From assembly GCA_038733315.1 (NCBI GenBank), contig JAVYPJ010000002.1, positions 84,571-148,570 on the forward strand: 64,000 nt of DNA. The letters run 5' to 3'. Each line of letters begins with the position of its first letter. Positions within the stretch are counted from its first letter, which is position 1. The position numbers were made by a program, and so were the translations under genes. Under the pieces are notes generated by a model. It had not been told where the DNA came from. It saw only the letters and a list, made by a program, of their open reading frames with translations, and ran no database searches. Positions 7,921 through 10,221 of the stretch are shown here, piece after piece. This DNA comes from Candidatus Aenigmatarchaeota archaeon. Its GTDB lineage: Archaea > Aenigmatarchaeota > Aenigmatarchaeia > CG10238-14 > SpSt-28.

Positions 7921-9051
7921 CTATCTAGTTATTTTTATTTCTTTCATTTCCTCTAAATATTTCTTTCCCGGGCCTTCTAAAAAATACTTTCTTGCTGGGG
8001 ATAATATTTCAATTAAATAATTTGCTACAGAATTCTTTAAGTCTAGAGGATGAATTTTTCCTTCTATATAATCTTTTTCCAAATCTTTAAAATTATTATA
8101 ACATCTCTTCTCTTTTGTTTTAATGTTTATTACTTCAAAAATTTTTTCAGCCCTCTCTAAATAAGGCCATATAATATATTTTAAAAGGTCAAATATAGGA
8201 TTAAGCTCTATTTCTCTAAGCGGACAATACGCTTCTCTTATTTTTCTTTTAATCTCTTCTTCTGTATCGTGAATAAATATGGCACTATTCGGCTTAGATT
8301 TAGACATCTTTATCTCTATTATTCCCTCTTCAAAAAGCTCTCTATTTCCTATTCTTTTAGCTTCAAGAATTTTTCTTCTTTGCTCTTCAGTTATGTGCAT
8401 ACCCATTAAGAGATGATGATGAATAGCAATAGGTTTATATCCAAATTCTTTACATACCTCTAAAGCTATAACATGAGCTTTACGTTGATCCATACCTCCA
8501 TGTGGAAGGTTTACTTTTAATCCGAATATATCAGCAACTTGCATAGGAACATATAATAATTGTGCAAAATCTACATTTTCACCCTCTCTTCTTCCCATTA
8601 TAGTAACACTTCTTTTAACTCTTGACAAACTTAAGTTCATTGAAACTTTGATTAAATCGTCGAAATATTCTAATCCAAGCTTTTCATACAGTTCAGAACC
8701 CATAATAAAATTACATTTATTCGCATCTCCTCCAACACTCTGTAGAGACAATTTGAGAGCTTCTTTGAAATAGCCTCCAGCGACTTTTCTAATAGTATCT
8801 AAATCTCCCCCAAGCTTTTTATTTATAAAAGAATGATAATCAGCTAAAAATATGTTTGTTTCTATTCCAGCTTGTTGAAAATCGGCAACTTTTTGCATAC
8901 ATAATAAACCAGTTCCTAAGTGAACATATCCCGAAATTTCATAACCAATATAATGCTTTAATTTTACACCATTTTCAATATATTCTTTTAACCTTTCTTC
9001 AGTTAAAATTTCTTCAGTCGGAATTTTCTTTATTAATTCTAATCTTTCCAT
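7921..9051 (-). CDS. tyrS: Tyrosyl-tRNA synthetase, copy A
   Basis: [15 protein letters not shown] (HIGH-like), [31 protein letters not shown]. Confidence 0.93.
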
Positions 9052-9120
9052 AAATATTTTTTATATTTTCAGATTAATGACAGCCTATGCATTTAAATTT
9101 TTTTCTAGTAAGCTAATTTT
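9052..9120. promoter_or_regulatory. 69-bp bidirectional promoter region between the two tyrS genes
   Basis: Divergent ATGs at 9051 and 9121. AT-rich, with TATA-like TTTATATT and TTTAAATT elements. Confidence 0.5.
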
Positions 9121-10221
9121 ATGGATGTTGAAGAAAGATTAAGATTAATTAAACTACCACCAACTGAAGAAATTATTACAGAAGAAGAGTTAAGAGAGCT
9201 CTTACAAACTAAGCAAAGAATAGTTGCGTATGATGGCTTTGAACCTAGTGGTTTAATGCATTTAGGAACTGGGGTGCTAAGAACTATAAAGACTAACGAT
9301 TTTATAGATGCGAAAATAGATTTTATAATCTATATAGCTGATTGGTTTGCTTATATAAATAACAAACTTGGTGGAGATATAGAGATGATAAGGAAAGCTG
9401 GAGAATATTTTATAGAAGGTTGGAAAGCTTGTGGGATGAAGGTTGATAAAGTAGAGTTTGTTTGGTGTAGCGAGTTAATTAAGGATTCCGAATATTGGGA
9501 AACTTTTTTAAAAATTTCAAAAACAATAACCATTAATAGAGTAAAAAGAGCCGTTACTGTTGCTGGAAGAGAGAGTGTAGAGGTAAAAACGCCATCTATT
9601 CTTATCTATCCTTTAATGCAAACCACAGACATTTTCATGCTTAATAATAAAGAAGGTGTAGATATTTGCCAGTTAGGTATAGACCAAAGAAAAGTTAATA
9701 TGCTTGCTAGAGAAATAGCTGAAATACTTGGAAGGAAAAAGCCAGTAGCTGTTCATCATCATTTACTTTCTGGATTACAATCTGTAGAAAAAATGGGTAA
9801 GTTCGACGAAAATGAAAAGATAAATCAAGAAATAAGTTTAAAAATGAGTAAAAGTAAACCAGAAACAGCTATTTTTATTCACGATAGTTATGAAGATATA
9901 AAAAGAAAGATTTTGAATGCTTTTTGCCCGCCAAAACAAGTAGAATTAAATCCAGTATTAGAAATCTGTAGATATATAATATTTAGGAAATTTGATAGAA
10001 TGGTTATAAAAAGGGAAGAAAAATATGGCGGTAATTTAGAGGTTCTTAGCTACGAAGAGCTTGAAAAAAACTATTTAGAAGGAAAAATACATCCCCTAGA
10101 CTTAAAGAATTCTGTAGCAGAATATCTAAACGAGATTTTAGAACCTATAAGGAATTACTTTGAGAAAGGTAAACAAAGAGAGCTTTACGAAATAATAAAA
10201 AACGCTACAAAAACTAGGTAA
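9121..10221 (+). CDS. tyrS: Tyrosyl-tRNA synthetase, copy B
   Basis: AYDGFEPSGLMHLGT, IYPLMQTTDI, LGIDQRKVN, KMSKS, IHPLDLK. Confidence 0.93.
   Translation: MDVEERLRLIKLPPTEEIITEEELRELLQTKQRIVAYDGFEPSGLMHLGTGVLRTIKTNDFIDAKIDFIIYIADWFAYINNKLGGDIEMIRKAGEYFIEGWKACGMKVDKVEFVWCSELIKDSEYWETFLKISKTITINRVKRAVTVAGRESVEVKTPSILIYPLMQTTDIFMLNNKEGVDICQLGIDQRKVNMLAREIAEILGRKKPVAVHHHLLSGLQSVEKMGKFDENEKINQEISLKMSKSKPETAIFIHDSYEDIKRKILNAFCPPKQVELNPVLEICRYIIFRKFDRMVIKREEKYGGNLEVLSYEELEKNYLEGKIHPLDLKNSVAEYLNEILEPIRNYFEKGKQRELYEIIKNATKTR

Follow-up and report, generated by a model that had tools for sequence, protein, structure and literature searches.

The two tyrosyl-tRNA synthetase (TyrRS) genes found next to each other in a 64,000-nucleotide stretch (hereafter the window) of a 288-kb contig from a tiny hot-spring archaeon, a Candidatus Aenigmatarchaeota (DPANN) genome, probably represent a native enzyme and a horizontally acquired counterpart, or "homeoallele", that coexist as independent isozymes. 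TyrRS-A (positions 7921..9051, minus strand) is a complete archaeal-type TyrRS of 376 aa from a clade resembling PDB 7fg6 and is the xenologous copy, while TyrRS-B (9121..10221, plus strand) is a complete archaeal-type TyrRS of 366 aa from a DPANN/eukaryote-like clade and is the native copy. The genes are divergent and separated by a spacer of 69 bp (9052..9120). The initial annotation described two complete, divergent TyrRS genes in this head-to-head arrangement, with these ORF positions and this spacer, and judged that neither was a tryptophanyl-tRNA synthetase (TrpRS); all of this holds, as do the motifs it quoted (HLGT, KMSKS, Y-x-x-M-Q-x-x-D, and DQRK). Its further proposal, an obligate heterodimer suggested by the co-location, finds no support.

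Both A and B are archaeal/eukaryotic-type class Ic TyrRS. The NCBIfam equivalog model for archaeal tyrosine--tRNA ligases (NF006330, cut-off 220 bits) scores A at 403 bits and B at 416 bits, while the best TrpRS model (cut-off 177 bits) yields 82 and 113 bits, respectively, under every TrpRS cut-off (all ≥177), and Pfam PF00579 is matched by both. These scores, combined with the tyrosine-specific residues, rule out a TrpRS in disguise for either copy. Aligned from end to end, the two proteins share 44% identity, and each carries the class I signatures (H44-L-G-T and K248-M-S-K-S in A; H47-L-G-T and K241-M-S-K-S in B), with the HLGT form also present in PDB 2cyc and 7fg6. Y-x-x-M-Q-x-x-D and DQRK occur in both, and both keep Y32, E36, Y151, Q155, D158, Q173, R174, K175, H283, and D286 of the Methanocaldococcus jannaschii TyrRS (Mj; the reference sequence used is identical to PDB 1j1u at 306/306 residues). 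The roles of the pocket residues are those generally known from the Mj TyrRS structure. The tyrosine pocket (Mj Y32, Y151, Q155, D158, and Q173) corresponds to Y34, Y167, Q171, D174, and Q189 in A and to Y37, Y163, Q167, D170, and Q189 in B, five positions that are invariant across 188/188 sequences compared. For the 52 columns with conservation of ≥95% among 124 archaeal-type TyrRS, A and B each retain 51, the exceptions being K313 in place of G in A, a state seen in another member of the A clade, and V147 in place of I in B. The His/Asp pair that recognizes G34 (Mj H283 and D286) is present as H334/D337 in A and H324/D327 in B. The aromatic residue that stacks on G34 (Mj F261) is Y302 in B and T312 in A; as threonine occupies this position throughout the A clade and in 7fg6, this is a variant of the clade and not a defect of the A gene.

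Six base pairs separate the stop codon of A from the start of a cdc6/orc1-like AAA+ gene (6883..7914, minus strand; Pfam AAA_22/ATPase_2 on the identical gene of strain L140), which is followed in the same direction by aIF5B, an IF-2 family GTPase (5139..6869, minus strand; Pfam GTP_EFTU/IF-2 on the L140 ortholog). Because of the 6-bp gap, A and cdc6 are probably carried on one transcript, which probably extends to aIF5B. The NCBI gene caller places the start of A 6 nt further upstream, which would give a protein of 378 aa and a gap of 63 bp. Within the spacer, which is kept in strains L140 and L141 with 3–5 substitutions, the palindromic element ATTTAAAT (9091-9098) is a candidate TATA box at -30..-23 from the start codon of B and -47..-40 from that of A, and could be common to both genes. 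Elsewhere in the window, several start codons are likewise preceded by TTTAAAT-like elements at ~25–40 nt. Promoter assignments are nonetheless provisional, since a positional TATA consensus over 30 upstream regions produced no sharp peak (the genome is 72% AT).

B is the native, vertically inherited gene. In a neighbor-joining tree of 188 sequences and 328 columns, B belongs to a clade of 77 sequences (98% bootstrap), within which B of the window groups with ZZQ1 (90%). The nearest Aenigmatarchaeota genes are 84% and 77% identical to B, the former from Aenigmatarchaeota ZZQ_201901_bins_1 and in conserved synteny. The nearest other species (L001) has the same aIF5B-cdc6-tyrS order, with amino acid identities of 75% for aIF5B, 66% for Cdc6, and 84% for B, but its cdc6 directly adjoins B across a spacer of just 25–28 bp and A is absent. 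Positions 3187-5954 of L001 align to 5138-7881 of the window and positions 5995-7100 to 9115-10220. The segment of the window without a counterpart between cdc6 and tyrS-B in that species (7915..9094, ~1.18 kb) consists of the A ORF with 6 bp of downstream and ~43 bp of upstream sequence; given the AT-rich sequence, its boundaries are not fixable to the base. Thus A is an insertion of ~1.2 kb between cdc6 and B. In a second relative (L002), B likewise occurs without an adjoining A, and together one sister and one outgroup locus suggest a gain of A here and not a loss in the sister.

A, in turn, is a xenolog from another TyrRS clade and not a local duplicate. Its clade has 51 members (100% bootstrap), including Thermofilaceae, Nanopusillaceae, Micrarchaeota, and some Aenigmatarchaeota, almost all of which originate from hot-spring or hydrothermal MAG series. 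A recent tandem or inverted duplication is ruled out by the 44% identity and by the separate, many-taxon clades. The 5' ends of the two genes, inverted relative to each other, include a 65-nt inverted repeat (75%), but gene conversion there was rejected because the N-terminus of A fits its own clade. The closest relatives of A (76–79% identity) sit among unrelated genes on contigs of low GC and have no B neighbor. In composition, A resembles the host genome, and its GC3 (0.19) is like that of its neighbors. A search for a mobile-element signature around A returned just short AT-rich repeats that did not stand out from 15 other families attributable to chance, and no tRNA, integrase, or long repeat was found at the insertion site. 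A direct repeat of 26 nt flanks the segment (7913-7938 and 9097-9122, 77%) and is probably due to chance.

The best PDB match of A is 7fg6 (539 bits, 64% identity over 372 residues), which shares with A a long insertion before KMSKS, N-x-K-T replacing K-F-G-G, and a C-terminal ...ITR. The PDB copy is titled only 'Tyrosine--tRNA ligase'; it is taken here to be the TyrRS of N. equitans, presumably the only TyrRS of that organism and presumably the enzyme of Horikoshi et al. 2021. Aminoacylation activity of the N. equitans TyrRS was described by Horikoshi et al. 2021, as cited in PMC10100707. The A clade as a whole is without the K-[FY]-G-G motif. In the M. jannaschii TyrRS, the aromatic residue of this motif stacks on anticodon base G34, and with its absence from the A clade, tRNA recognition there may differ in detail. 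Systematic differences between the clades extend to positions lining the pocket, with Mj H70 represented by H in A and F in B, and Mj Q109 by Y in A and I/V/M in B, in addition to the G34-stacking position (T in A and Y/F in B). No description of a split of archaeal TyrRS into A and B types was found in the accessible literature.

The distribution of the two types was assessed from the neighborhoods of A- and B-type genes through cluster members. The head-to-head adjacency is limited to this species and is absent from L001, L002, and all other loci examined, and at nearly all of ~300 other loci either the A or the B type is the sole TyrRS within the fetched flanks. Both types occur, unlinked, in at least two further Aenigmatarchaeota genomes: GXS_202101_bins_79, where they lie ~307 kb apart on one 481-kb scaffold, and DRTY-6_201808_bins_43, where they are on different contigs. 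The records for these other dual genomes are JAWBNO01 and JAVZGQ01. Including the present lineage, at least three lineages of Aenigmatarchaeota hold both types. The A copies of these dual genomes are 65–67% identical to each other, compared to 54/54/75% for the B copies; relationships among the A copies do not follow those of the B tree, which suggests that the A type may have been gained repeatedly with B retained. Both clades are also represented within the Woesearchaeota and within the Micrarchaeota. In the other dual genomes, the HIGH motifs of the B-type genes (HLPF and HIAx) look degenerate but are eukaryote-like and normal for the clade, and many genomes with just one TyrRS at the locus have such variants too. 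None of the eight tRNA genes in the 64-kb window encodes tRNA-Tyr; the 'tgta' tRNA at 14781 is a tRNA-Thr(UGU) with an intron. The tRNA that adjoins the A-type gene at another locus (L081) is a tRNA-Arg(CCU).

Both A and B are under purifying selection, and B experiences no relaxation of rate. Both ORFs are intact in every copy, dN/dS within the species is 0.09–0.13 for A and 0.15–0.17 for B, and a relative-rate test of B against L001, which is without A, gave 18:17 unique changes (p = 0.87), indicating no acceleration. Metatranscriptome reads on positions 6500-11000 numbered zero in three 2026 sets and one RNA assembly, all from the same studies, which is uninformative as to expression.

Combined, these observations are best accommodated by gain of a second TyrRS without loss of the first. 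B would have been inherited vertically, while A would derive from a separate clade of archaeal TyrRS in circulation among archaea of hot environments and would have been gained by horizontal transfer, with another low-GC DPANN lineage as the most likely donor. Having landed between the native tyrS and cdc6, A would now head the cdc6-aIF5B gene string, while B, on the opposite strand, would retain a start of its own at a distance of 69 bp. Each enzyme is expected to activate tyrosine as a conventional class Ic homodimer, and both are expected to charge the same archaeal tRNA-Tyr (C1:G72, A73, GUA). It is this shared expected function, predicted from the conserved active-site residues, that would make the two a coexisting homeoallele pair, and the pair may represent an intermediate state of synthetase gain or replacement in which selection maintains both copies. 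As would be anticipated for homeoalleles, A and B fall in separate supported clades with other taxa, B follows the lineage and its synteny, and A is missing from the corresponding site of relatives.

A less likely alternative is a division of labor, in which A and B are both kept for differing in a property relevant to hot springs. Candidate properties are the temperature optimum, resistance to natural TyrRS inhibitors, discrimination against D-Tyr or analogues (as for TyrS/TyrZ of B. subtilis), and preference for a differently processed or modified tRNA-Tyr. The similar purifying selection on the two genes, with B unrelaxed, and the presence of both types in at least three Aenigmatarchaeota lineages, with repeated gain and retention of B suggested, all agree with this possibility, which is kept alive by the co-occurrence of both types in at least two other Aenigmatarchaeota genomes. 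Together, equal constraint, an unrelaxed B, and recurrent co-occurrence appear to be explained poorly by pure redundancy and hint at some functional difference. The almost exclusively hot-spring and hydrothermal carriers of the A clade and the systematic differences at the pocket-lining and G34-stacking positions point in the same direction, and precedents are available in PMC5388404 and PMC9437257. Conversely, the clade-specific residues are the norm of clades that serve as the sole TyrRS at almost every other locus, and the nearest sister species appears to live on B alone.

A stronger form of this argument, considered rather doubtful, is that hot-spring Aenigmatarchaeota repeatedly gain a 7fg6-type TyrRS while keeping their own and that the two enzymes are not interchangeable, with a conditional A:B heterodimer as the extreme form. 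On such an account, the missing G34-stacking aromatic and the different pocket-lining residues of the 7fg6 type would reflect a distinct substrate or condition, and the role of A would be to serve a differently processed or modified (possibly host-derived) tRNA-Tyr, to function at high temperature, or to provide immunity to a natural TyrRS inhibitor.

A functional A:B heterodimer, obligate or conditional, with divergent co-regulation securing the stoichiometry, is improbable. TyrRS is a dimer that binds tRNA across its subunits, and the head-to-head genes, 69-bp spacer, and palindromic TATA-like element would suit joint expression of two partners; hetero-oligomers of duplicated synthetases also have precedent (PMC4787780). 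However, the copies show no complementary loss of motifs: each keeps 51/52 of the conserved columns, and no catalytic, tyrosine-binding, or anticodon-domain residue typical of its clade is missing from either. The proteins are also only 44% identical. Nor is the pairing conserved in relatives, an outcome that the initial annotation had named as counting against its proposal: the adjacency is restricted to one species, cdc6 adjoins B directly in L001, the closest A-type relatives have no B neighbor, and the other dual genomes carry the types ~307 kb apart or on different contigs. An obligate heterodimer is therefore unsupported, as A is a xenolog and not a duplicate and as each type occurs without the other nearby at almost all loci. 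One further and weak point is the presence of F162 in A and P158 in B at the position that presumably corresponds to a dimer-axis residue of bacterial TyrRS.

It is also very unlikely that one copy acts outside translation, as a moonlighting or regulatory paralog (e.g., A tied to cdc6/aIF5B) or, for B, as a gene bound to become a pseudogene. A lies 6 bp upstream of cdc6 and is probably co-transcribed with it and aIF5B, and duplicates of archaeal LeuRS with non-canonical roles are known (PMC9437257). Against this, neither protein is truncated or missing any of the catalytic and tRNA-binding signatures, dN/dS is low in both with no acceleration of rate, and the link between A and cdc6 is missing at all other A-type loci, where no synteny with cdc6 or aIF5B was found.

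The arrangement of A and B is not an artefact of assembly. The junctions are crossed by independent Logan contigs, including one of 6191 bp (X5) that spans 6500-10653 and contigs from X1 and X2 that span both junctions with even depth; in these three runs the population attains a DNA depth of 30–100x. The gene order recurs in two further NCBI MAGs of the same species (GCA_039001505.1 and GCA_039091835.1) at 98–99% nucleotide identity. In total, the cdc6-A-B arrangement is present in three MAGs and in independent hot-spring metagenome contigs from two studies. While chimeric contigs are possible in MAGs, and one public contig (L138) ends in 94 nt of gene A fused to unrelated DNA, a chimera of two organisms in assembly or binning can be set aside given the order shared by the window, the two NCBI MAGs, and individual contigs of independent runs, the uniform depth over both junctions, and the composition of A, which equals that of its neighbors.

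Duplicated synthetases are common in bacteria, where they usually derive from horizontal gene transfer (HGT) or function as stress isozymes or in antibiotic resistance, and are less expected in minimal DPANN genomes, where nearly every kept gene is thought to be needed. The locus is thus an unusually clean snapshot of synthetase gain, with native and acquired genes adjoining, intact, and constrained, and with the insertion of A dated by a sister species that does not carry it. The case is a clear instance of gene gain of a familiar type and provides no evidence of a novel two-part enzyme. Through it, a distinct clade of archaeal TyrRS also comes to light, centered on hot habitats and with a different anticodon-binding-site motif. 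The TyrRS family is the workhorse of genetic-code expansion, and should A and B differ in thermostability or in selectivity for tRNA or amino acid, they would constitute a natural pair of related but distinct archaeal TyrRS scaffolds. Should they be equivalent, the transient state postulated by models of homeoallele replacement would be documented, and should the enzymes not be interchangeable, a reduced symbiont genome would have translation with two TyrRS as a stable trait.

Duplicates of synthetases are a frequent finding, and HGT is a common source of them (PMC4787780 and PMC5388404). The closest known parallel is the homeoallele model of Andam & Gogarten 2011 (PMC3191353), in which a second synthetase of identical function is gained by HGT, coexists with the first, and is followed by later loss, with bacterial TyrRS and archaeal ThrRS and SerRS as cases. 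As in that model, A and B are deeply divergent forms of the same expected function that occur patchily across a higher taxon and are passed on by HGT, and a genome with both forms is the predicted intermediate between gain and loss. Unlike the published cases, where there is essentially one form per genome and replacement by flanking recombination is favored, here both forms lie side by side, are fixed in the species, and occur together in at least two further genomes.

Other systems share individual features with the pair. B. subtilis TyrS/TyrZ (Williams-Wagner et al. 2015, as described in PMC9437257) likewise provide one prokaryote with two complete and active TyrRS, the second copy being a specialized, conditionally used isozyme, but they are bacterial-type and unlinked, and TyrZ is controlled by a T-box and a MarR regulator. 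The Anabaena ThrRS T1/T2 (Rubio et al. 2015, PMC4787780) are duplicated dimeric synthetases of one genome and provide the precedent for heterodimers of paralogs; they belong, however, to class II, and their heterodimers form under zinc stress and were shown experimentally, whereas nothing at the present locus points to hetero-oligomers. The pseudo-dimeric TyrRS of trypanosomatids (PDB 3p0h/5usf, chains that B matches at ~281 bits) also pairs two archaeal/eukaryotic-type TyrRS modules, but as a fused polypeptide with complementary losses of catalytic and anticodon-binding function (Larson et al. 2011, as cited in PMC9437257), whereas A and B are separate genes and both complete. Finally, the P-type and E-type ProRS of B. 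thuringiensis (PMC11229370) combine, as proposed here, a native and a horizontally derived enzyme for the same amino acid that are differently structured, in that case both expressed in one cell and biochemically characterized and in another synthetase class and another domain of life.

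On the evidence of sequence comparison, the pair of tyrosyl-tRNA synthetase (TyrRS) genes in this AT-rich archaeal window (28% GC) is a native TyrRS and a horizontally acquired TyrRS of another clade, fixed in one Aenigmatarchaeota species. ORF A (TyrRS-A, 376 aa; 7921-9051, minus strand) and ORF B (TyrRS-B, 366 aa; 9121-10221, plus strand) share 44% identity end to end, both match PF00579 (Pfam) and score 403 and 416 bits, respectively, on NF006330, the NCBIfam archaeal TyrRS equivalog (cut-off 220 bits). Neither copy is a TrpRS, as their scores on the best TrpRS model (82 bits for A, 113 bits for B) fall below its cut-off of 177. 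Mapped onto the M. jannaschii TyrRS (Mj; 306/306 identical to PDB 1j1u), both retain the HIGH-type motif HLGT (also found in PDB 2cyc and 7fg6), KMSKS, the tyrosine-pocket residues Y32, Y151, Q155, D158 and Q173, R174/K175, and H283/D286 of the anticodon domain. Among 124 aligned archaeal-type TyrRS, 52 columns were at least 95% conserved, and each copy deviates at one of them: A carries K313 for Gly, shared with the TyrRS of locus L082, and B carries Val for Ile. The equivalog scores, motifs and residue mapping thus bear out every detail of the initial annotation's description of the two genes.

The start codons of A and B lie 69 bp apart in divergent orientation. Downstream of A on the minus strand are genes for a Cdc6/Orc1-like AAA+ protein (cdc6; 6883-7914) and aIF5B (5139-6869), with a gap of 6 bp from the A stop codon to the cdc6 start codon. 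Because A sits 6 bp upstream of cdc6, at what is the cdc6 upstream region in the sister species, we infer one transcript for A and cdc6. The A/B spacer contains a perfect palindrome, ATTTAAAT (9091-9098), which is 23-30 nt upstream of the start codon of B and 40-47 nt upstream of that of A. TTTAAAT elements resembling it occur ahead of several other window genes, and the palindrome is a plausible candidate TATA box for transcription of either gene or both. In the composition profile, cumulative GC skew reaches its minimum at the A/B divergence point (8000-10000), beside cdc6/orc1. This minimum coincides with a switch in gene orientation, several more of which occur elsewhere in the window, and it probably reflects coding-strand bias, not a replication origin.

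The window also encodes intron-containing tRNAs. The minus-strand tRNA at 26926-27023 (Rfam, 60 bits) has the anticodon loop C-U-U-A-U-A, then the intron, then A; the anticodon is therefore UAU and the tRNA a tRNA-Ile(UAU), so that the ARAGORN call of 'His (atg)' is wrong. Few archaea encode a tRNA-Ile(UAU) in their genomes; N. equitans and Korarchaeum are known examples. On the plus strand, a tRNA-Thr(UGU) with an intron at 37/38 lies at 14781-14874 (reported by ARAGORN as 'tRNA-??? (tgta)'), and a tRNA-Lys(UUU), whose intron at 37/38 is ~32 nt long and which Rfam detected but ARAGORN missed, at 31354-31462.

Comparison with relatives distinguishes the native copy from the acquired one. The window is collinear with the locus of the nearest other species (L001, JAWAZZ010000005.1), at amino-acid identities of 75% for aIF5B, 66% for cdc6 and 84% for B; A is absent from the L001 locus, where cdc6 directly adjoins B with ~25 bp between them. 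At the locus of the next relative (L002), a tRNA-His lies upstream of B and no A is found beside B. As both lack A, the ~1.18-kb segment at ~7915-9094 is an insertion relative to them. The genes most closely related to A (76-79% identity) reside on low-GC contigs (26-30% GC) in gene contexts quite unlike the window, such as beside tRNA-Leu and tRNA-Arg (KUA_Bin01), flanked by TrkH and a TrpD-like gene, or beside a DRG-type GTPase, and none of these loci has a B neighbor. The GC3 of A (0.19) lies within that of neighboring genes (0.17-0.22), as expected if the donor, probably another DPANN lineage, had a similar base composition or if A has long been resident. No mobile-element signature was found around A, and short flanking repeats were no better than chance. 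At two A-type loci, L222 (1293-2318, minus strand; WPAA01005441.1) and L223, a 341-aa PF00579 protein is encoded 2.2 kb from the A-type TyrRS and beside a TrpD-like gene. It is very divergent and TrpRS-like, with only 75 bits against the TrpRS models for archaea (cut-off 451) and 44 bits against TyrRS.

The two copies belong to separate, well-supported clades. Among solved structures, A is closest to 7fg6 (539 bits, 64% identity), with 2cyc of P. horikoshii second (52%). B matches 2cya of A. pernix, 2cyc and the Plasmodium and Leishmania TyrRS; against the latter two it scores ~280-307 bits versus ~163-187 for A. In a neighbor-joining tree of 188 archaeal-type TyrRS from ~300 genomic loci (328 columns, 100 bootstraps), the B clade (77 members, 98% support) consists mostly of DPANN lineages, and B is sister to Aenigmatarchaeota ZZQ_201901_bins_1 (90%), then isolate S16 (98%). 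The A clade (51 members, 100% support) is poorly resolved internally (bootstraps <70%) and includes Thermofilaceae, other Thermoproteota, Nanopusillaceae, Micrarchaeota, Culexarchaeia, some Asgard MAGs and several Aenigmatarchaeota. Its carriers are almost all hot-spring or hydrothermal MAGs from many phyla with mutual identity of only 60-77%, which suggests spread by horizontal gene transfer (HGT). The K-[FY]-G-G motif, near-universal otherwise, is absent from the A clade, which instead has N-x-K-T-G-E, as in PDB 7fg6 (e.g., window 8110-8130; loci L081-L110 and L142-L172). The aromatic residue of K-[FY]-G-G stacks on anticodon base G34 in the M. jannaschii TyrRS complex, and anticodon recognition in the A clade may be built differently. 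The clades also differ at the pocket-lining positions Mj H70 and Q109, and window A and window B each match the typical residues of their own clade exactly. Archaeal-type TyrRS of both clades occur in MAGs labeled Patescibacteria/CPR, Chloroflexota and Dormibacteria (L035, L038, L120, L136, L210, L216, L286), in line with the DPANN-to-CPR transfers that Mukai et al. 2017 reported (PMC5370408).

Apart from conspecific MAGs, none of the ~300 loci fetched with A- and B-type queries had two TyrRS genes within its flanks, so A-B adjacency is not conserved outside the species. The dual state itself recurs: the Aenigmatarchaeota MAG GXS_202101_bins_79 carries A-type (~166.6 kb) and B-type (~474.2 kb) genes on the same 481-kb scaffold, and DRTY-6_201808_bins_43 carries both on two contigs. 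The B copies of these MAGs are 75% identical to one another and each 54% to window B, whereas the three A copies share a flat ~65-67%, about the level that separates them from genes of Thermofilaceae or Nanopusillaceae. Subject to the weak resolution inside the A clade, the dual state would be more easily read as repeated gain than as simple co-inheritance. Several Nanopusillaceae MAGs list two A-type TyrRS (380 aa and 373 aa) with nearby accession numbers (e.g., L087 and L090 in DRC_201705_bins_67), which points either to bins that mix strains or to another TyrRS duplication in DPANN.

The initial annotation had proposed a division of labor or an obligate heterodimer. A division of labor, the less likely reading, gains some weight from the recurrence in other genomes and from A and B being equally constrained. 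Both ORFs are intact in all assemblies, and between-strain dN/dS (A, 0.09-0.13; B, 0.15-0.17) is comparable to the values for aIF5B and cdc6, on small counts of 10-16 synonymous versus 6-7 non-synonymous changes. Tajima relative-rate tests revealed no acceleration of B against L001 (18 versus 17 unique changes, p=0.87) and no consistent acceleration of A. Metatranscriptomes from the studies whose metagenomes cover the locus yielded 0 reads, which says nothing either way. The obligate heterodimer is not supported: there is no complementary degeneration and no conserved linkage, and nearly every other locus has just one of the types as the only TyrRS found there. We exclude an assembly chimera, as the order B, spacer, A, cdc6, aIF5B, PCMT is common to two MAGs (GCA_039001505.1 and GCA_039091835.1; 98-99% DNA identity to the window) and both junctions are spanned at even depth by Logan contigs that come from two hot-spring metagenome studies, a single 6.2-kb contig covering 6500-10653. 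A protein 100% identical to A was found on a 288-kb contig, and proteins at least 90% identical occur in several NCBI MAGs. Separately, a contig of a related MAG (L138, 3601-3694; JAWCDI010000112.1) ends with 94 nt 99% identical to mid-gene A (8340-8433), the adjoining 3.6 kb matching nothing in the window, and a 3.4-kb Logan contig (run X9) touches the window at 8332-8358 only, probably reflecting an assembly break or chimera at that point.

Synthetase duplicates are very frequent in prokaryotes, often via HGT (PMC4787780, PMC5388404). For TyrRS, a review of duplicated synthetases has no entries beyond TyrZ of B. subtilis and the eukaryotic enzymes of double length (PMC9437257), and no description of a dual-TyrRS archaeon was found in the literature consulted. 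The locus is a new, tidy case of a known type of event, and its value lies chiefly in offering a basis for comparisons between the two TyrRS types of archaea. The data agree with the homeoallele model of synthetase evolution, in which related lineages exchange divergent but functionally identical forms and a genome that has both represents the stage between gain and loss (PMC3191353).
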